A DNA stretch of 64,000 nucleotides from an uncultured Acidobacteriota bacterium (lineage in GTDB: Bacteria > Acidobacteriota > Vicinamibacteria > Vicinamibacterales > JAHECP01), in NCBI GenBank assembly GCA_963812185.1, contig CAWEUE010000005.1, positions 32,405 through 96,404 of the forward strand. Reading direction: 5' to 3'. How positions within the stretch are numbered: the stretch's first letter is position 1; every line of letters begins with the position of its first letter. The notes under the pieces were generated by a model. That model had not been told where the DNA came from and searched no databases. It saw nothing but the letters and a program-made list of their open reading frames with translations. Of this stretch, positions 27,721 through 36,615 are shown in pieces. A program made the position numbers and the translations under genes.

Positions 27721-28896
27721 ATGGCGAAATCTCTCCACCCGTCGCGGGCGACGACCCGGACGGCGCGGCCGCTGCGCGCGCCCGGGCTGGCCGTGCACGC
27801 GTTCGTCGAGCCGGGGCAGGAGATCGTCAGCGCCGACACGGGCATCGCCTACCGCATCGACCGCCTGCTCGGCGCCGGGGGGTTCGGCCAGGCGTACCTC
27901 GCCACGCGCCTGAGCCGCGCGCGCGACGTGCCCCGGACGCTCTGCATCAAGGTCAGCCCGCGCATCGACGGCTGGCTGACCGAGGCGTACTTTGGCCAGC
28001 TCCTCGGCGGGCACCCGCGCGCGATCCGCGTGTACGACCGGTTCCCGCTGATGCGCCCGAACGGCGCGCTCCTCTACTGCCTCGCGCTCGAGTACGCGCG
28101 GCACGGCGACCTCAGCGCCTTCCTGGCGCGCCCCGGCCGGAAGTGGACCGAGCGGGCGGTGCGCCGCGAGATCGCGGGCGTCCTCGACGTGCTCGGCCGG
28201 CTGCACCGCGGCCAGATGCTCCATCGCGACCTCACGCCGGTCAACGTGTTCGTGTGCGACGGCCACGCCCTCAAGCTCGGCGACTTCGGCATCGTCCGGC
28301 CGCAGAGCGACCGGCGCGGCGTCACCGCGCACACCCTGAACGTGATGACCGCGCCGAGCGACATCCTGGCGGGCGCCGCGCCGAAGTGGCAGGCGCGCGA
28401 CGACGTGTACCAGGTGGGGCAGCTCGTCGGCATGCTGGTGAAGGGCGACGCGCGCGAGCGGATCCTCAAGCACGAGATCCGCGGCCTCGAGTGCAGCGAC
28501 CACCTGAAGGAGGTCATCTACCGCTGCATCGGGGAGCGGCGGAAGCGCTACGAGAGCGCCGACGAGCTGATCGACGCCCTGCGCAACCCGCCGCGCGTGC
28601 TGAAAGCCGGCGCGGTCCGCTCGCTGAAGGGCGTCCACCTGGCGTTCACCGGCATCCTCAGCAAGCCGCGCGCGGACGCGGCGCGCGCGGCGAAGCGCGC
28701 GGGCGCCATCGTCCACGGCGCGCCCTCGTCGCAGACGACGGTGGTCGTGCGCGGCCGCCCCAACCCGCTGCAGGCGGCCGGCCGGAACGCGGGGCTGAAG
28801 CTGATGGAGATCAAGCGCCTGCGCGAGCGAGGCCATCGCATCACCCTGCTGAACGAGACCCAGTTCTGGCGACTGGTTGCCCGGGGCCGGGGCTGA
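27721..28896 (+). CDS. Ser/Thr protein kinase fused to a C-terminal BRCT domain
   Basis: GAGGFGQAY, CIKV, HRDLTPVNVFV and LGDFGI mark the kinase. The C-terminal GVHLAFTGILSKPRADAARAAKRAGAIVHGAPSSQTTVVVRG...ETQFWRLV resembles the LigA-type BRCT. Confidence 0.75.
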   Translation: MAKSLHPSRATTRTARPLRAPGLAVHAFVEPGQEIVSADTGIAYRIDRLLGAGGFGQAYLATRLSRARDVPRTLCIKVSPRIDGWLTEAYFGQLLGGHPRAIRVYDRFPLMRPNGALLYCLALEYARHGDLSAFLARPGRKWTERAVRREIAGVLDVLGRLHRGQMLHRDLTPVNVFVCDGHALKLGDFGIVRPQSDRRGVTAHTLNVMTAPSDILAGAAPKWQARDDVYQVGQLVGMLVKGDARERILKHEIRGLECSDHLKEVIYRCIGERRKRYESADELIDALRNPPRVLKAGAVRSLKGVHLAFTGILSKPRADAARAAKRAGAIVHGAPSSQTTVVVRGRPNPLQAAGRNAGLKLMEIKRLRERGHRITLLNETQFWRLVARGRG

Positions 28897-29650
28897 ACCC
28901 TGGCGACCCGGGCGATCTGCCGGGCGGGCGCGTCGCCGTCACGCGCACCATGCCGCGCGCCCCTCCCTCCACGACGGTCGTCAACCCGACCCGCTCGAGC
29001 ATGCGCGCGACCCACCGGGGCGACAGCCGCAGCTTGCGGTAGTGGCTCACCCGCATCCGCCATCGGGCGCCCTGGCGTTGGTGGACGATGTCGTGCACGA
29101 GGACATGACGCCGGCGCGCCTCGAGGAAGCACGTGTGGATCCGCTCCGGATCGCTCCGGACCGGGATGAACCGCGCGTCGCCCTCCGGCAGCGCGGTGGA
29201 GTCGCGAAACGTCGCCAGGAACCGGCCTCCGTCGGCCAGCGCGTCGGCGACCTCGTCGAAGAGCCTGAGGACCAGCGCTACGTCCGTCAGGTGCGTCAGC
29301 GTGTCGCCCATGCACACGATGACGTTCGGCCGGGCGTCGAGGTGCGCCCGGAAGTCGACCAGGTCGGCCTGCACCGCCCGCACGTCGAGGCCCGCCGCGT
29401 GGCGGCGCAGCTCGCCGAGCAGGTGCGCCGATTGATCGATGGCGATGACGCGAAAGCCGCTCCGCGCGAGGGGGACGGCATGCGCGCCGGCGCCGGCGCC
29501 GAGATCGACGGCGACCGCACCATCCGGCGGCGCCGGCCCGAGCGGAGCGACGTCGCCGGCGCCACGGGCGAGGGCGGCCTCCATGCCGCCCTCCGCCCAG
29601 GTGTAGACCGGCGCCAGGCACGACGCGTAGTGCTCGATGACAGAAGCCAC
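28841..29650 (-). CDS. class I SAM-dependent methyltransferase
   Basis: The GTG start follows a GAGGTGA RBS. VDLGAGAGAHAVPLA (motif I) is present. The last ~28 codons are antisense to the kinase 3' end and have poor codon bias, so the true stop is uncertain. Confidence 0.7.
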   Translation of the reverse strand: MASVIEHYASCLAPVYTWAEGGMEAALARGAGDVAPLGPAPPDGAVAVDLGAGAGAHAVPLARSGFRVIAIDQSAHLLGELRRHAAGLDVRAVQADLVDFRAHLDARPNVIVCMGDTLTHLTDVALVLRLFDEVADALADGGRFLATFRDSTALPEGDARFIPVRSDPERIHTCFLEARRRHVLVHDIVHQRQGARWRMRVSHYRKLRLSPRWVARMLERVGLTTVVEGGARGMVRVTATRPPGRSPGSPGFSPGPGQPVARTGSRSAG

Positions 29651-29655
29651 GGATC

Positions 29656-30531
29656 TCACCTCGTGATCACGGTCTCCACGTACTCGCCCGGCACGACGAG
29701 GCCTGAGGCCCCACCGCGGTCGAGCGACCGGAGCAGCGCGAGGAGATCCGCCTCGAGGGCGGCCTGGCGGTCGGCGTCGAGCGCGCGGAACGCGGTGTAC
29801 GCAGGACCGTAGAAGTTCCGGAACACCTCCACGAAGTGCTCCGCCGACCGGTACCGGAAGGCGAACGTGCGCGTCGTGTGCGCGATCGCCGCCGCGTCCG
29901 GAAACAGCGCCCGCACGTGATCGGCGGTGCCCCACAGCAGCGGCGACAGGACCCCCGGCGCGGGCGGCACGTAGCTCGCCACCAGGCGCAGCATCTGCCC
30001 GACGAAGCCGGCCGGCGTCCAGCTCGCCAGCCCGATGCGGCCGCCCGGCCGGCACACGCGCGCCAGCTCGGCGGCGGCGCGCGCGTGATCGGGCGTGAAC
30101 ATCACGCCGAACGTGGAGACGACGACGTCGAAGCTCGCGTCCGGGTAGGGCAGCGCCTCGACGTCGGCCACCTCGAAGGTGACGTTGCCGAACCCCTCGC
30201 CCTCGGCGCGGCGGCGGCCCCGGTCGAGCAGCGCCGGCACGTAGTCGGTGGACGTCACGGTCGCGAAGCGCCGCGCGGCGGCGAGCGTCGCGTTGCCGTT
30301 GCCGGCCGCCACGTCCAGCACCCGATCGAGCGCGCGCACGTCCACCGCCTCGTTCAGCAGCTCGCCCACGATCTGCAAGGTCGCGCCGATCACCGCGTAG
30401 TCCCCGGACGCCCAGATCGCCTGCTGGCGAGACTTGATCGCGCGCAGACGGTCCGGCGGGATGGCCGGATCGCACAGCACCATGTTCGGGACCGGCGGGA
30501 CGCCGGACGCCTGTGAAGCCACGGTTGTCAT
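29656..30531 (-). CDS. class I SAM-dependent methyltransferase (UbiE/COQ5-like)
   Basis: VLDVAAGNGNATLAAA (motif I) and FDVVVSTFGVMF are present. ATG at 30531. Confidence 0.8.
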   Translation of the reverse strand: MTTVASQASGVPPVPNMVLCDPAIPPDRLRAIKSRQQAIWASGDYAVIGATLQIVGELLNEAVDVRALDRVLDVAAGNGNATLAAARRFATVTSTDYVPALLDRGRRRAEGEGFGNVTFEVADVEALPYPDASFDVVVSTFGVMFTPDHARAAAELARVCRPGGRIGLASWTPAGFVGQMLRLVASYVPPAPGVLSPLLWGTADHVRALFPDAAAIAHTTRTFAFRYRSAEHFVEVFRNFYGPAYTAFRALDADRQAALEADLLALLRSLDRGGASGLVVPGEYVETVITR

Positions 30532-30694
30532 ATACTCACCCTCCAAGCGGGCCGCGCGGCAGTGCGCGGCGCCTCCCCAAGGTAGGCGAGCGGCGGTGTG
30601 AGAGCCATGCGCGAGCGTCCGATTCGCGCGGCAGGGCATCCGAATGTGCGCCAGACCTGCTCATCCGTCCGACCCCGATGCCCGCGCGTCCGAC
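30532..30694. repeat. copy A of a ~160-bp upstream-leader repeat (core 30604-30694)
   Basis: The core differs from 35747-35837 at about 6-7 of ~88 positions by manual alignment. Weaker homology continues to the RBS and start codon of the minus-strand gene. Confidence 0.75.
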
Positions 30695-31675
30695 GCGCGA
30701 GGCGCCGGCGCGCCGGCTGACGTCCTGTCGGACGTCCTGCGGTCGGTCCACCTGACCAGCGCGGTCTACTTCGACTTCGAGCTCAGCTCGCCGTGGGTGG
30801 CGGAGGCCCCGCCCTCGCGGGAGATCGCGGCGCTCGTGATGCCGGGCGTCGAACGCGTCATCGAGTACCACCTCGTGGTCCGCGGCGCGTGCTGGGCGCA
30901 CGCGGTCGGCGACGAGCCCATCCGCCTCGACGAGGGCGATCTGATCGTCTTCCCGCAGGGCGACGCGCACGTGCTGTCGAGCGCGCCGGGCCTGCGGTCC
31001 ACGCCCGACCTGTCGATCTTCGGCCGCCCGGGCACGCCGCTGCCGCTGGTGTACGAGCGCGGCGGTGGCGGCCCCGACCGCGCCCGGCTCGTGTGCTGCT
31101 TCCTCGGGTGCGACGAGCGGCCCTTCAACCCGCTGCTCGCGGCGCTGCCGAGGGTGATCCACGTGCCCGGCGCGGGCCGCGAGGCCGCGAGCGGGTGGCT
31201 CGCCACCCTGATCCATATCGCCGTGCGGGAGTCGGGCAACGCGCGCGCCGGCCGCGACAACATCCTGGCGCGGCTGTCGGAGCTGATGTTCGTCGAGGCG
31301 GTGCGGCGCTACGTCGAGGGGCTCCCGCCCGCCCAGACCGGCTGGCTGGCGGGCCTGCGCGACCCGGTCGTCGGGCAGGCGCTGGCCGCGCTGCACGCAG
31401 CGCCGGCCGAGGCGTGGACGCTCGAGCGGCTCGCGCGATCGGCCGGCGTCTCGCGATCGGTCCTGGCCGACCGGTTCGCCGAGATGGTCGGACAGCCGCC
31501 GATGCAGTACCTCGCCATGTGGCGCATGCAGCTCGCCTCCCGGCGGCTGCGCGAGGGCGGGCGCGTGGCGGAGGTGGCCGGCGCGGTGGGCTACGAGTCG
31601 GAGGCGGCCTTCAGCCGGGCGTTCAAGAAGCTCGTGGGCGAGTCGCCGGCGGTGTGGCGGAGAGGGCAGCAATGA
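30644..31675 (+). CDS. AraC family transcriptional regulator (cupin N-domain + HTH)
   Basis: DVLSDVLRSVHLTSAVYF and GDLIVFPQGDAHVL mark the N-domain. The C-terminal region is ERLARSAGVSRSVLADRF...GYESEAAFSRAFKK. The only canonical start lies inside repeat copy A. Confidence 0.8.
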   Translation: MCARPAHPSDPDARASDARGAGAPADVLSDVLRSVHLTSAVYFDFELSSPWVAEAPPSREIAALVMPGVERVIEYHLVVRGACWAHAVGDEPIRLDEGDLIVFPQGDAHVLSSAPGLRSTPDLSIFGRPGTPLPLVYERGGGGPDRARLVCCFLGCDERPFNPLLAALPRVIHVPGAGREAASGWLATLIHIAVRESGNARAGRDNILARLSELMFVEAVRRYVEGLPPAQTGWLAGLRDPVVGQALAALHAAPAEAWTLERLARSAGVSRSVLADRFAEMVGQPPMQYLAMWRMQLASRRLREGGRVAEVAGAVGYESEAAFSRAFKKLVGESPAVWRRGQQ

Positions 31676-32902
31676 CCCGGTTCGCGCGCGCCATCGGCAC
31701 GCTCGTCCTGCTCCTCCTCTGGTCCGGTCCCGGCGACGGCGCGGCGGCGCAGAAGCCCGACGCCGGCCTGAAGGCGCGGGGCCTGTCGGGCAACCCGGTG
31801 ATCGAGGGCTGGTACGCCGACCCCGAGGCCGTGGTCTACGGCCGCGAGTACCTGGATCTATCCCACCTGGTCGGACGACTACCCGACCGGGCGCCCGCTG
31901 GACGCGGCGCACGTCACCGCGCGGCAGAAGCAGGCCATCAACCCGCAGTACCTGAAGCAGACTTTCTTCGACGCGTTCTCGTCCGACGACCTGGTGCACT
32001 GGACGAAGCACCCGCGCGTGCTGGACATCAAGGACGTCCCGTGGGCGGCCTACGCGCTCTGGGCGCCGTCGGCCGTGCACGCCAACGGCAAGTACTATCT
32101 GTTCTTCGCGGCGAACGACATCCAGAGCGACGCGGAGGAGGGCGGCATCGGCGTGGCCGTCGCGGATCGGCCCGAAGGTCCGTACAGGGACGCGCTCGGC
32201 AAGCCGCTCGTGAACGCGTTCCACCACGGCGCGCAGCCCATCGACCCGTTCGTCTTCCACGACGACGACGGGCAGTACTATCTCTATTACGGCGGCTGGA
32301 GGCACTGCGTCGTCGCGCGCCTCACGCCGGACCTGCTCGCCTTGAGGCCGTTTCCCGACGGCGAGACGTTCAAGGACGTGACGCCCGAGCATTACGTCGA
32401 GGGGCCGTTCGTGTTCCGGCGCGGGGGCAAGTACTACCTGATGTGGTCGGAGGGCGGGTGGACGGGGCCGGACTACAGCGTGGCCTACGCCGTCGGCGAC
32501 TCACCGACGGGCCCCTTCACGCGCGTCGGCAAGGTGCTGCAGCAGGACCCGAAGGTCGCGACCGGCGCCGGGCACCACTCGGTCATCCCGGTGCCCGGCT
32601 CCGACACCTGGTACATCGTCTACCATCGCCGCCCGCTCGGCGACACGAACGGCAACCACCGCGAGGTGTGCATCGACGAGATGCGCTTCCGCCCGGACGG
32701 CGCGATCGCACCGGTGCGGATCACGTTCGAGGGCGTGAAGGCGAGGCGAATCGGACGACCGCGAATCGATCGGCCGGCCCGTCACGTCGCCCGGCGCAGC
32801 TCGGCGTCCACCTCGCGCCCGACCCGGGCGGCGATGTCCACGGTCGCCTCCACGTCGGCGCGCGTGGTGTGGAAGTTGACGATGCACGCTCTCAGGAAGT
32901 AG
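31672..32902 (+). CDS. glycoside hydrolase family 43 (secreted); +1 frameshift at 31852
   Basis: It has a signal peptide and NPVIEGWYADPE | WIYPTW..., ALWAPSAVHANGKYYLFF, IDPFVFHDDDGQYYLYYGG, EGPFVFRRGGKYYLMWSEG. The ATG overlaps the AraC stop (ATGA). The final ~55 codons overlap the convergent decarboxylase with poor codon bias, so the true stop is probably near 32740. Confidence 0.8.
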
Positions 32903-34311
32903 CGCCCGCCGACGACGGCGTTGGAGACGAAGGCCTCGCCGCCGCGCTGCAGACGGTCGAGGATCGTGCGGTTGAGCGCGTCGAGGTGGCGTTCGACGGC
33001 CGGGTCTCCGACGTTCGGCCGCAGATCGCGCGGCACGTAGCGGAACGTGGTGATGCTCAGCTCGCGGCTCACCAGTTCCAGCTCGTCGCAGCCGCGGACC
33101 GCGTCCGCCATGGCTCCCGCCAGGCGGATGTCGTCGGCGATCATCCTGCGGTAGCCCTCCGCTCCAACCTGCCTCAACGCGAGCCACACCTTGAGGGCGC
33201 GGAACCCTCTCGAGTTCTGCGGCCCGTAGTCGAGGTAGTTGGTCGCCTGCTCGTCGAAGTGGTAGTAGGGCGGGTGATAGGCGAACGCCGCTCGCAGCCG
33301 TTCGGGGTCGCGCACCAGCGCGCAGCCGGCCTCGAGCGGCGCGTAGAGCCACTTGTGCGGATCGACCGCGACCGAGTCGGCCGCGGTCAGGCCGCGCAGG
33401 TCGCCGGATGCGTCGGGAAGGGCGGCGGCGAACGCGCCGTAGGCCCCGTCGACGTGGAACCAGGCGCCGTGCTCCGTGCACACCGCGCGGATGTCGCGCA
33501 GGGGATCGACCGCGCCCGTGCTCACCGACCCCGCCGTGCCGACCACCAGGCACGGCACGTCTCCTTCCGCCCGGTCCGCCTCAATCTGGCGGCGCAGCGC
33601 GGAGACGTCCATGCGGAGGCCGGCGTCGGTCGGAATCCACCGGATCGCCGCGGTGCCGAGGCCGGTGATGTCAGCGGCCTTCTGCAGCCAGGTGTGGGTC
33701 TCGACCGACGCGTACACCCGCAGCCGCCGCCCGTCGCCGCCGCCGACGCCGCGCTCCCGGACGTCCCACCCGGCCTTCGCGGCGCGCGCGGCCAGGAAGC
33801 ACGCGACGTTGGCCATGTTGCCGCCGCTCACGAGGAGGCCGCCGCAGTCAGCGGGATAGCCGATGAGCCCGGCAATCCAGCGCACGGTCTGCGCCTCGAT
33901 TTCGGTGGCGGCCGGCGACAGGGCCCACGCGCCGACGTTGGCGTTCAGGGCCGCGGCCAGGAAGTCGCCGAGCACGCCGATGGGCGCCGGCGGCGCCGTG
34001 ATGTAGCCGAAGAAGCGGGGGTGCGCGTTGAACAGCGAGTGCTCGAACAGCAGTCGCGCGGTCCGCTCCAGCAGGGGGCCCGGATCGGTTCCCGACTCGG
34101 GAAGCGGACCCGACAGATCGAGCGTCTGCCGCAGCGCGGTCGGCGACTCGTCACGCGTGACCGGGCCGCGCGGCACCGCGTCGAGCGACTCGGCCAGCTG
34201 GTCGACCAGGCGGTGCCCCAGCGCGCGGAAGGTCGCCGCGTCCATGGCGAGCGGCGCCCGCCGGACGGAGTCGTCCGCCGCCGGCGCGTGTCCGTGTGAG
34301 CGCTTCGTCAT
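32782..34311 (-). CDS. PLP-dependent group II (aromatic-L-amino-acid type) decarboxylase
   Basis: SGGNMANVACFLAAR, HVDGAYGAF and VDPHKWLYAPLEAGC (PLP lysine) are present. Confidence 0.85.
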   Translation of the reverse strand: MTKRSHGHAPAADDSVRRAPLAMDAATFRALGHRLVDQLAESLDAVPRGPVTRDESPTALRQTLDLSGPLPESGTDPGPLLERTARLLFEHSLFNAHPRFFGYITAPPAPIGVLGDFLAAALNANVGAWALSPAATEIEAQTVRWIAGLIGYPADCGGLLVSGGNMANVACFLAARAAKAGWDVRERGVGGGDGRRLRVYASVETHTWLQKAADITGLGTAAIRWIPTDAGLRMDVSALRRQIEADRAEGDVPCLVVGTAGSVSTGAVDPLRDIRAVCTEHGAWFHVDGAYGAFAAALPDASGDLRGLTAADSVAVDPHKWLYAPLEAGCALVRDPERLRAAFAYHPPYYHFDEQATNYLDYGPQNSRGFRALKVWLALRQVGAEGYRRMIADDIRLAGAMADAVRGCDELELVSRELSITTFRYVPRDLRPNVGDPAVERHLDALNRTILDRLQRGGEAFVSNAVVGGRYFLRACIVNFHTTRADVEATVDIAARVGREVDAELRRAT

Positions 34312-35141
34312 TCGTCGATCCCTTCGAACAGATCCGTCTCCAGAGCGCGCCCGCCGTTGACGGTGCTGAACGCGCGGTAGAACGACTGCCGGCCCCAGAG
34401 CGCCCGGTGGTGCTCGGGCGGCAGGTCCCTCAGCCGCTCGTAGGCGGCCACCTGCGACTCGTGACACGACACCGCGCGCCAGACCACGGGCCACACGTCG
34501 CCGGTATCGATGACGGTGGTGATGGCCCAGTCCGGCCAGGGTACCGCATGGCGTTCGACGCCGTCGACCGCCGACGACAGCGTGCCGACGGCGGCCTGGT
34601 AGGCGCGCCACGTCGATTCCGGCCAGGCCAGGTAGTAGAGCTTCGACACGGCATGCGGCGGCGCCCCGGCGTCCGCGCCGCCGGAGTCGAACCCTCCGTC
34701 CGCCGCCGCCACGACCGCCGCCGTCGCGAGCTGCGAGATCGCGATGTGATCCGGATGCCCGTACGCGCCGTCCGGCCCGAACGTGACGACGACGTCGGGC
34801 CGCGTCCGCCTGAGCTCCCCGACGATGCGCCGGATCGCCTCGCGCGGCTCGGCGCGGTCGAGGTGCTGGTCGGGGTAGCCCAGCAGCGAGAGCCCGCGCA
34901 CGCCCAGCGCCGCCGCGGCCGCCCGCAGCTCGGCCTCGCGGAGGGTCGCCAGCGCCTCCGGGCCGGGGTGGCGGGGATCGCCGCGGCGAAGGCCGCGGAA
35001 GCGGCCGCCGTCGCCGCGCGTCGCCGTGACCAGGAACACGTCCACCCCGTCCGACGCGTACCGGGCCAGCGTGCCGCCCACCCCCAGGGACTCGTCGTCC
35101 GGGTGGGCCAGCACCGCCATCAGCCTCGCGCGTCTCGTCAT
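34308..35141 (-). CDS. PIG-L / LmbE-family deacetylase
   Basis: MAVLAHPDDESLGVGGTLA and GYPDQHL...GHPDHIA are present. ATGA overlaps link it to both neighbours. Confidence 0.85.
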   Translation of the reverse strand: MTRRARLMAVLAHPDDESLGVGGTLARYASDGVDVFLVTATRGDGGRFRGLRRGDPRHPGPEALATLREAELRAAAAALGVRGLSLLGYPDQHLDRAEPREAIRRIVGELRRTRPDVVVTFGPDGAYGHPDHIAISQLATAAVVAAADGGFDSGGADAGAPPHAVSKLYYLAWPESTWRAYQAAVGTLSSAVDGVERHAVPWPDWAITTVIDTGDVWPVVWRAVSCHESQVAAYERLRDLPPEHHRALWGRQSFYRAFSTVNGGRALETDLFEGIDE

Positions 35142-35677
35142 GCGGCCGCCCCGGCCAGCGCGGCACGGATCCGCGCCAGGTGGTGGTAGCTGTGACGGAC
35201 CGCGTGGTCCTCGAGAAAGAACTGGCACGTGAGCGGCGCGTCGGCGTAGAGGGAGACCGTCGCCGCCCGGTCGAGCTCCTCGTCGCTGAGCGCGCGAATG
35301 GCGGCGGCCGCCGCCGCGGCGTTGCGGCGAAGCAGGTCGAGCGCCGCGTCCTTCGTGGCCGCCTGGTTCTCGTCGGCGTGCCTGGCGTTGAGCTCGTGCA
35401 CCGTGCTCCACGTCACGTCGGCGATGGCCTCGCCGGCGGCGAGGACCTGCGCCAGCTGGATCTCCAGCGGGTACATCGTCGCGACGTGGTGAACCACCAC
35501 GCCGATCGCGCGACCGTCTCCAGGGACGCGGGTTCGCCACTCGACGTCGGTGAGCGCGCTCGCGGCGGCGTCGAGCGCGCGGGCTCCCTGTTCGAGGCGT
35601 TCGGCGAGAGCGTGTGCGCGCGTGCTGACCGCCGTCAGCGGCGAGGCAACGGATACGGGCGAGGCAACGGCTGGCAT
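35138..35677 (-). CDS. DinB-superfamily (DinB_2-like) protein
   Basis: The size and four-helix pattern fit, with His-containing motifs (VVVHHVATMYP, HSYHHLARI). Confidence 0.65.
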   Translation of the reverse strand: MPAVASPVSVASPLTAVSTRAHALAERLEQGARALDAAASALTDVEWRTRVPGDGRAIGVVVHHVATMYPLEIQLAQVLAAGEAIADVTWSTVHELNARHADENQAATKDAALDLLRRNAAAAAAAIRALSDEELDRAATVSLYADAPLTCQFFLEDHAVRHSYHHLARIRAALAGAAA

Positions 35678-35837
35678 GTGTCATCCTCCATGACGGCCGC
35701 GCGGAATTGCGCGGCACGTCCACGGTATCCGAGGCCCGAGCCCGCAGCCATGCGCGAGCGTCCGGTTCGCGTGGCAGGGCATCCGAATGTGCGCCCGACC
35801 TGCTCGTCCGTCCGACCGCGATGCCCGTGCGTCCGGC
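35678..35837. repeat. copy B of the ~160-bp upstream-leader repeat (core 35747-35837)
   Basis: See copy A. It has the same orientation and sits 70 nt from the minus-strand start codon, against 73 nt for copy A. Confidence 0.75.
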
Positions 35838-35974
35838 CCGCGGGCGACCCGGGCGCGAGAAGGGCGACCTTCGCGGTGGTCCGGCCGCTGGACCAGACGG
35901 CGGAGCTGGGCCGCGCGAGTGCTCCTACAATATCCGCACCCGCTCATCCGTCTACACCCATAGAAGCAGGCCCC

Positions 35975-36038
35975 GCCTTCGCCGCAGCTACGGCGGGGCA
36001 GGCGGCGCCTTCGCGGCAGCTACGGCGGGGCAGGCGGC
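35975..36038. repeat. tandem duplication, 2 x 32 bp (GCCTTCGCSGCAGCTACGGCGGGGCAGGCGGC)
   Basis: There is one mismatch between the units. It ends 16 nt before the ECF sigma ATG. Confidence 0.85.
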
Positions 36039-36054: not shown

Positions 36055-36615
36055 ATGACGCTCGAACAGGACCGGCGAATCGCCGACGTCGTCGACCGGG
36101 AGCAGTCCCGGCTCCGCCGGTTCATCCGGCGCCGGGTGCCCGACCCGGGCGACGTCGAGGACATCCTCCAGGACGTGTTCGTCGAGCTGGTGGAGGCGAA
36201 CCGCCTGCTGATGCCGATCGACCACGTCACCGGCTGGCTGTTCCGCGTCGCGCGCAACCGCATCATCGATCTCTTCCGGAAGAAGAAGCCGGACCGGCTC
36301 GGCGACGCCGCCGTGGCTGACGACGCCGGCGAGGCGGCGCCGCGGGTGGAGGACCTGCTGCCGTCGCCGGACGCCGGGCCCGACGCGCTCTACGCCCGCC
36401 GCGTGCTGCTCGAGGCGCTGGACCTGGCGATCGACGAGCTGCCGCGGGACCAGCGCGAGGTGTTCGTGGCGCACGAGCTCGACGGGCGCAGCTTCAAGGA
36501 GATGGCGGCCGCGACCGGCGTGAGCGCGAACACGCTGCTGTCGCGCAAACGCTACGCCGTGCGGCGGCTGCGCGAGCGGCTGCAGACCGTCTACGACGAG
36601 TTCACCCGGACGTGA
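36055..36615 (+). CDS. ECF-type RNA polymerase sigma factor
   Basis: EDILQDVFVELV and TGWLFRVARNRIIDLFRKK mark region 2. LPRDQREVFVAHELDGRSFKEMAAATGVSANTLLSRKRYA marks region 4. Confidence 0.88.
   Translation: MTLEQDRRIADVVDREQSRLRRFIRRRVPDPGDVEDILQDVFVELVEANRLLMPIDHVTGWLFRVARNRIIDLFRKKKPDRLGDAAVADDAGEAAPRVEDLLPSPDAGPDALYARRVLLEALDLAIDELPRDQREVFVAHELDGRSFKEMAAATGVSANTLLSRKRYAVRRLRERLQTVYDEFTRT

Follow-up and report, generated by a model that had tools for sequence, protein, structure and literature searches.

A probable operon split by duplication and complementary loss, with two copies of a predicted AraC control region, in an uncultured Acidobacteriota bacterium

The stretch of DNA considered here, referred to throughout as the window, comprises 64,000 nucleotides (nt) of contig CAWEUE010000005.1 (positions 32,405 to 96,404; assembly GCA_963812185.1) from an uncultured member of the Acidobacteriota, order Vicinamibacterales, and has a GC content of 71.6%. 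Near its middle lie genes for an S-adenosylmethionine (SAM) methyltransferase, an AraC-family regulator, a GH43 protein, a pyridoxal phosphate (PLP)-dependent decarboxylase, a PIG-L deacetylase, a DinB protein and an extracytoplasmic function (ECF) sigma factor (Table 1). These identities had been proposed in an earlier note, made from the letters of this DNA, and were confirmed by Pfam. The methyltransferase and dinB genes, both on the minus strand, are each preceded by one copy of a direct repeat, and the two copies bracket 5.1 kb of DNA. We present evidence that the repeat is the control region of an operon which is single in relatives, and that it was probably doubled when a whole gene cluster was duplicated and different genes were then lost from the two copies.

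A repeat search of the window returned a direct pair of 111 nt (30603-30713 and 35746-35856) with 87% identity, and blastn gave a match of 180 nt (30536-30713 versus 35681-35856; 81.7% identity, E=8e-42), which bears out the earlier report of a direct repeat upstream of two minus-strand units. The repeat had been given a length of about 160 bp; it is real, but the homologous unit is longer, approximately 225 nt, and reaches about 15 codons into both downstream open reading frames (ORFs). Likewise the core, described as 88 nt with six or seven differences, does match closely in the two copies, but measures 91 nt in each (30604-30694 and 35747-35837), with exactly seven mismatches and a longest identical run of 23 nt. 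The best of 20,000 pairs of 91-nt segments drawn at random from the window was identical at 46 of 91 positions. The distances of 73 and 70 nt from core to ATG had been given correctly, and a GCCGCGC-N6-GCGCGGC hairpin and a GGAGG ribosome binding site (RBS) are present in both copies as described. In copy 2 the homology on the araC side ends just past the outermost of the short repeats discussed below (ca. 35856).

Further copies were sought in the window with blastn and with nhmmer, the latter using a hidden Markov model (HMM) built from relatives only, and beyond it by k-mer scans; the 64-kb window holds the two copies and no third was found in it. The HMM matched exactly two sites, both on the minus strand, at 30535-30696 (E=6e-25) and 35683-35839 (E=1.6e-24). 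An 18-mer from the most conserved block had 15 matches in 185,579 species genomes, all of them limited to the seed, where about 17 are expected by chance. A 21-mer scan of metagenomes gave one match, contig L018, which is a close relative's orthologue of copy 2 (95% identical to the window in the PIG-L and dinB genes, and 91% in the repeat). A multi-copy or mobile element was rejected on these counts. Since each copy with its flanks was recovered at 100% identity in two independent Logan assemblies, and both junctions were reproduced, the arrangement is not an assembly artefact.

Gene context was compared at eight independent loci in relatives (L019, L020, L021, L022/23, L024-27, L028, L029 and the P0055 contig). 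In all eight a Cupin_6 AraC gene lies divergent to an operon beginning with dinB and the methyltransferase gene. At three of them (L020, L022/23 and L024-27) the operon reads dinB-methyltransferase-PIG-L-PLP decarboxylase; L019, L021, L028, L029 and the P0055 contig carry the dinB-methyltransferase pair. In L019, L021, L028 and the P0055 contig the cluster consists of araC and this pair only, without PIG-L or decarboxylase genes, while the L029 contig stops inside the methyltransferase gene and is uninformative on this point. The methyltransferase gene of L028 is broken into two short ORFs, and this, together with the four relatives without PIG-L and decarboxylase genes, indicates that the cluster is evolutionarily labile in several lineages. 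DinB homologues at 71-80% identity number in the thousands and, where the source is named, come from metagenome-assembled genomes of the Vicinamibacterales.

Because relatives carry the genes of both window units as a single conserved operon, the units are halves of one operon, and the description of them as two unrelated operons does not hold. The single araC-dinB intergenic region of the relatives can be aligned over its whole length to L018 and to each window copy, and a core of 92 nt shows no insertions or deletions across the 10 aligned sequences. The synteny comparison proposed in the earlier note, run on these eight relatives, thus revealed no "empty site", and instead one intergenic region between araC and the dinB-led operon.

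The two copies differ in what follows the repeat. At copy 1 the methyltransferase begins with an N-terminal extension, MTTVASQASGVPPVP, which matches the DinB N-termini of relatives (MTTVVSQTSRAPE in L019; MTIVVSHASNAPLAP in L024). The extension is lacking in the 119 nearest methyltransferase homologues, which are 277-282 amino acids long and cover 93-97% of the window protein, this range excluding P0221 and P0240, two full-length DinB-methyltransferase fusions among the 119. At the join the relatives read MTNV.SC and the window ..NMVLC, and in a tblastn comparison of the L024 methyltransferase with the window the alignment begins at residue 3, corresponding to 30486. Based upon the N-terminal match and this starting point, copy 1 consists of araC, the intergenic region, and dinB codons 1-15 fused to the methyltransferase gene. 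At copy 2 the stop codon of an intact dinB overlaps a new ATG for PIG-L (gcATGAcg) at the position held by the methyltransferase gene in relatives, in which dinB and PIG-L are parted by that gene plus two spacers of 13-15 nt. Protein alignment shows nothing else unusual at the C-terminus of DinB or the N-terminus of PIG-L, and the junction marks what appears to be a clean deletion of the methyltransferase gene.

No second copy or remnant of araC, dinB (beyond the fused codons), methyltransferase, PIG-L or decarboxylase was found in the window by tblastn; this includes any araC remnant beyond 35856 at copy 2 and any PIG-L or decarboxylase remnant after the methyltransferase gene. Each cluster gene is therefore kept once in the window and the control region alone is kept twice. 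The same split or fusion was not seen in other genomes among the 119 nearest methyltransferase homologues. The fusion proteins P0221 (463 amino acids) and P0240 (460 amino acids, 22 member sequences), found in some relatives, join full-length DinB_2 and methyltransferase, which suggests that the two enzymes may act together.

We consider it probable that this arrangement arose through duplication with complementary loss, leaving a split operon and a duplicated AraC control region. The whole cluster would have been duplicated in the lineage of the window, most simply in tandem. One cluster copy would have kept araC and the control region and lost dinB by in-frame deletion, together with the PIG-L and decarboxylase genes; the other would have lost araC and the methyltransferase gene and kept the control region with dinB-PIG-L-decarboxylase. 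Since different deletions sit in different copies, the segment comprising the control region, dinB and the methyltransferase gene was once present at least twice. In the operon sense the observed order is region 2-dinB-PIG-L-decarboxylase / GH43-araC-region 1-dinB'::methyltransferase. This would fit a tandem duplication with complementary losses, and equally a second cluster copy brought in by a crossover at the control region. The decarboxylase and GH43 genes, whose stops lie at 32782 and 32902, converge with their 3' ends overlapping by about 120 nt; this is the place where the junction of a tandem duplication would be expected.

The event is old, as the copies have diverged to 38-67% identity outside the core: identity between them is 91% in the core, 38% in the promoter spacer, 67% in the untranslated region (UTR) and 63% in the dinB codons. 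Outside the core the copies are no closer to each other than either is to the relatives, and 10 derived states are common to both while 11 and 10 are private. L018 carries changes specific to copy 2, from which it follows that the split predates the divergence of the window organism from that of L018. The dinB gene of L018 is without 264 nt (88 codons, in frame) by comparison with window positions 35276-35570; the deletion sits between short imperfect direct repeats, 35276-35306 and 35540-35570. Past the araC-side boundary of copy 2 the sequence of L018 is unrelated to that of the window.

The earlier note had offered, as the second of two readings, that the copies were direct repeats left by insertion or duplication of the bracketed module. 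Duplication stands. The bracketed 5 kb, however, do not look like a foreign module: there is no empty site in the relatives, the GC content is 0.70-0.75 throughout and uniform over the segment borders, and Pfam identified in the segment only araC, GH43, decarboxylase, PIG-L and DinB genes, with no recombinase, integrase, transposase or plasmid gene. The uniform composition and the lack of a recombinase argue against a recent insertion, and a foreign composition for the segment was rejected on the same GC values.

Table 1. Features of the locus, in window coordinates
Feature	Coordinates	Strand	Remarks
Repeat copy 1	30487..30713	-	araC-proximal edge, four TCGGAYG repeats, -35/-10-like hexamers, 5' hairpin, RBS, ATG 30531, 15 dinB-derived codons
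Repeat copy 2	35633..35856	-	Anatomy as copy 1, then intact dinB (ATG 35677); no araC on far side
Four direct TCGGAYG repeats, copy 1	30616..30693	-	30687-93, 30666-72, 30637-43, 30616-22
Four direct repeats, copy 2	35759..35836	-	35830-36 (CCGGACG), 35809-15, 35780-86, 35759-65 (CCGGACG)
Predicted promoter, copy 1	30579..30608	-	ATGGCT (30603-08), 18-nt variable spacer, TACCTT (30579-84)
Predicted promoter, copy 2	35722..35751	-	ATGGCT (35746-51), 18-nt spacer, TACCGT (35722-27)
GC hairpin GCCGCGC-N6-GCGCGGC, copy 1	30551..30570	-	Begins 6-8 nt after -10-like hexamer
GC hairpin GCCGCGC-N6-GCGCGGC, copy 2	35696..35715	-	As copy 1
dinB codons 1-15 (MTTVASQASGVPPVP) joined in frame to methyltransferase codon 3	30487..30531	-	Protein alignments
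Chimeric SAM-methyltransferase ORF, 291 amino acids	29656..30531	-	Pfam
Second SAM-methyltransferase, immediately downstream	28841..29650	-	Outside relatives' cluster; Pfam; gene call in L002
Cupin_6/HTH_18 AraC-family regulator	30644..31675	+	Pfam
GH43 gene	31672..32902	+	ATG overlaps araC stop; apparent frameshift near 31850-31860; Pfam
PLP-dependent decarboxylase	32782..34311	-	Start coordinate approximate; Pfam; 83% identity to L025 orthologue
PIG-L/LmbE-type deacetylase	34308..35141	-	ATG overlaps dinB stop; Pfam
DinB_2 family gene, intact	35138..35677	-	Pfam
ECF sigma factor gene flanking copy 2	36055..36615	+	Pfam; absent beside cluster in L019-L029

The anatomy of the control region points to an operator and promoter in DNA. 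Activators of the AraC family are commonly encoded divergently from the operon they control, and bind to half-sites in direct repeat. Here the core holds four TCGGAYG repeats on the same strand, spaced 21, 29 and 21 bp start to start, of which the GGACG part is invariant in all 10 aligned sequences; at sites 1, 2 and 4 the motif extends to TCGGACG-N3-G-N-GCA. Over the whole window the 7-mer shows no enrichment (39 found versus 47.7 expected), so the cluster is a local one. Site 4 (TCGGACGCTCGCGC) directly precedes an invariant CATGG, read as the -35-like hexamer ATGGCT, which is followed after a spacer of 18-19 nt by an invariant, -10-like TAnnnT. The GC hairpin, lying at the predicted transcript start, is probably a 5'-terminal stem-loop of the mRNA, and the 5' UTR is likely to consist of this short hairpin and the RBS, about 45 nt only.

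The absence of insertions and deletions, the spacing of the repeats by integral helical turns, their direct orientation and their position beside an AraC gene together make up the signature of an operator of the AraC/XylS type, a type in which the proximal site abuts the -35 element. A divergent araC gene adjoins copy 1 and the control region of all eight relatives; copy 2 is without one. The stretch of the core on the araC side was considered as coding sequence, either for a small ORF or for the N-terminus of AraC, which might account for its conservation. This was rejected: the variable columns show no codon periodicity (16, 13 and 16 by codon position), in-frame stops precede the conserved GTG start codon of araC in L020 and L022, and for these two reasons the stretch was non-coding in the ancestor.

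In the proposed mechanism a single AraC protein would bind the four phased repeats as two pairs of sites, 21 bp apart within each pair. The promoter-proximal site would abut a weak -35 element, and AraC would drive the TAnnnT promoter at both copies. In this way the methyltransferase unit would still be co-regulated with the dinB-PIG-L-decarboxylase unit, though the two are no longer co-transcribed. That both copies are functional is suggested by the pattern of change between them. Of 74 columns without variation in seven relatives, 68 have the same base in both copies, and of 127 variable columns 86 do (odds ratio 5.4, p=5.8e-5); with five relatives the same test gives p=5.2e-5. Although no araC adjoins it, copy 2 has all of the elements (four sites, two hexamers, hairpin and RBS), and in L018 the -35- and -10-like hexamers, hairpin and RBS of this copy are likewise kept. 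On the simplest reading the one AraC would act on copy 2 in trans, and the half-operons would remain co-regulated.

Several points weigh against this account. The araC gene of the window has lost its conserved start codon, as a result of which its expression is uncertain. All relatives keep the GTG (V-S-A/T-DVLSDVL), but the window has GCG in its place, and the sole in-frame start there is ATG 30644, inside the core and 23 codons upstream of the lost position (30644-30720); the window AraC would thus either carry an N-terminal extension translated from operator DNA or be poorly expressed. Site 3 is weaker than the others, reading TCGGATG and having no GCA box. A strict scan for the sigma-70 consensus matched nothing in either copy, which is to be expected of an activator-dependent promoter in a 72% GC genome. 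The specific assignment of AraC sites and promoter was made from conservation and position only, and we favour it with modest confidence. An intermediate genome with two complete clusters was not found among the top 120 DinB homologues, the top 120 methyltransferase homologues or the loci examined, the close lineage being represented only by L018. As to the order of events, tandem duplication with four deletions and a second cluster copy integrated by recombination are alternatives, and the 91% identity of the cores could owe something to gene conversion rather than to selection alone.

Four other explanations bear on the same observations. The first reading of the earlier note, a shared cis-regulatory element, is supported in the form of promoter and operator DNA, but not in the form of an RNA leader. 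A structured, riboswitch-like RNA, making up a 5' UTR of about 180 nt in both units and sensing a common metabolite, would explain why the RBS and start codon of each unit come immediately after the repeat, and some pairing is in its favour; we nevertheless regard it as extremely unlikely. The checks by Rfam and covariation which had been proposed for an RNA element speak against one: Rfam gave 0 matches for the whole window at gathering thresholds and again 0 for each copy when the limit was E<=1, and sense-strand folds are no better than dinucleotide shuffles (z = -0.21 and -0.10). In nine orthologous sequences the RNAalifold covariation term is only -1.26 kcal/mol, and pairs with double changes number 2, versus 1.5 in shuffles. 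Of the three conserved hairpins or stems described earlier the GC hairpin fares best, being 96.8% paired; its changes are one-sided, from G-C to G.U, with no compensatory pairs, and it is compatible with a 5'-terminal stem of the mRNA as well as with a DNA palindrome. The GGGCATC/GATGCCC stem is 88.9% paired and has one G-C to U.G switch, but pairs mostly by way of invariant columns which belong to sites 1-3; the GCGCGA-N9-TCGCGC hairpin, which contains site 4, is paired in only 66.7%. Moreover, the invariant TAnnnT comes between the core and the GC hairpin, 6-8 nt ahead of the latter, so that the likely transcript start falls downstream of the core, and the conserved units are direct-repeat 7-mers at helical phasing, a signature of DNA binding. 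A riboswitch or RNA leader was accordingly rejected.

It might also be that only copy 1 works, copy 2 being a decaying relic or kept alike by gene conversion, with dinB-PIG-L-decarboxylase under some other signal, for example an ECF-dependent one. Copy 2 has an ECF sigma gene as its neighbour and no adjacent araC, CCGGACG stands in place of TCGGACG at two of its four repeats, and the dinB gene of L018 has its internal deletion of 264 nt. At site 1, however, CCGGACG is also the ancestral form in most relatives, the changes in copy 2 avoid positions invariant in relatives (p about 5e-5), and the hexamers, hairpin and RBS are retained there and in L018. An ECF-sigma promoter was rejected, because on inspection of the sequence the candidate -10 positions are not conserved in the orthologous regions and the relatives have no ECF gene at the cluster. 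We judge a non-functional copy 2 to be very unlikely. The 5.1-kb segment (dinB-PIG-L-decarboxylase-GH43-araC) may instead have entered as a circle, through Campbell-type recombination at the control region, and be open to re-excision. The order ECF, region, dinB-PIG-L-decarboxylase-GH43-araC, region, dinB'::methyltransferase is the exact product of one such crossover, araC would adjoin the region and dinB on the circle as it does in relatives, L018 has the araC-side boundary of copy 2 with a different flank beyond it, and the copies share their 23-nt identical run. Against a circle, both complementary deletion derivatives would be needed beforehand on separate molecules, the segment has no integrase, transposase or plasmid gene, its GC content does not change at the borders, and none of the relatives examined is in the pre-integration state. 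The copies are saturated with changes outside the constrained core, which means that the integration would be ancient and efficient excision at present unlikely. Entry as a circle is thus improbable in our estimation. We give hardly any credence to its stronger version, in which the segment is a recombination cassette, integrated by crossover at the operator and still able to loop out between the 91%-identical cores. Were it true, excision would remove the regulator and half of the pathway and leave a regulator-less dinB'::methyltransferase unit, so that the cassette would amount to an operator-mediated on/off rearrangement of a metabolic cluster.

Some further features of the neighbourhood deserve mention. 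The GH43 gene appears to change frame (window 31672-31993): ATG 31672 sets the frame for the signal peptide and first conserved strand (MTRFARAIGTLVLLLLW...NPVIEGWYADPEAVVYGREY), and the remainder (WIYPTWSDD...) is read in the one which opens at 31802. The frameshift denotes a pseudogene or else an error of assembly. Just before the start of the ECF sigma gene, at 35966-36029, are two tandem units of 32 nt, 91% identical, each with a GC-rich inverted repeat (CCCGCC...GGCGGG), and a TACAAT hexamer lies at about 35927-35932. At the other end of the locus a Ser/Thr protein kinase ORF (27721-28896) converges on the second methyltransferase gene; it has a marginal C-terminal match to BRCT (E=2.8e-4, 21.5 bits versus a cutoff of 21.3).

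If duplication with complementary loss is accepted, the locus is a clean, sequence-resolved example of an operon split without loss of regulation, in which a control region, RBS, start codon and 15 codons now stand before a different gene. The four TCGGAYG sites with their phasing, the -35/-10 pair and the 5' hairpin also add up to a phylogenetic footprint of an AraC regulator of the Cupin_6 type, as yet uncharacterised, in Vicinamibacterales-like soil bacteria, and the locus links the DinB, SAM-methyltransferase, PIG-L deacetylase and PLP decarboxylase genes functionally.

Among known systems, duplicated copies of riboswitches and leaders (e.g. those of lysine riboswitches, PMC5584792) are comparable in that two copies of a cis-element lie upstream of genes which elsewhere form one operon. 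They differ in that the present element behaves as DNA, with phased repeats upstream of a -10-like hexamer and neither an RNA family match nor covariation. Closer in design are the control regions of the araC-araBAD type and that of CdhR-caiX. CdhR of Pseudomonas aeruginosa is an AraC-family protein encoded divergently from its operon; it binds direct repeats, and extra half-sites may serve autoregulation (PMC5806209). As in those regions, the regulator here is divergent and the intergenic DNA holds several presumed half-sites, direct repeats that are paired at a distance of two helical turns. The predicted proximal site would lie next to the -35 element, and the additional upstream half-sites could serve autoregulation or looping. 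Unlike them, the regulator has a Cupin_6 sensor domain, the motif TCGGAYG-N3-G-N-GCA has been defined by conservation alone, and the operator and promoter occur twice, once without an adjacent regulator gene, and hence call for regulation in trans.

The split itself resembles the operon deaths treated by Price, Arkin and Alm (2006) in "The Life-Cycle of Operons", which come about by insertion, rearrangement or replacement and are followed by lower co-expression (PMC1480536). As in such cases, a conserved operon of functionally linked genes has been split in one lineage, with all the genes kept nearby. It differs from the listed routes (insertion, inversion, replacement) in that the split carries a duplicated promoter/operator and the first 15 codons of the first gene, and it is this which implies duplication with complementary loss. 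The split is a variant, a tidy but ordinary piece of genome evolution which brings no new principle and does not overturn current understanding. Duplication and complementary loss would nevertheless be an added route to the usual list of operon deaths and, unlike the "dead" operons with their reduced co-expression (PMC1480536), the split in the window predicts that co-regulation has been preserved.

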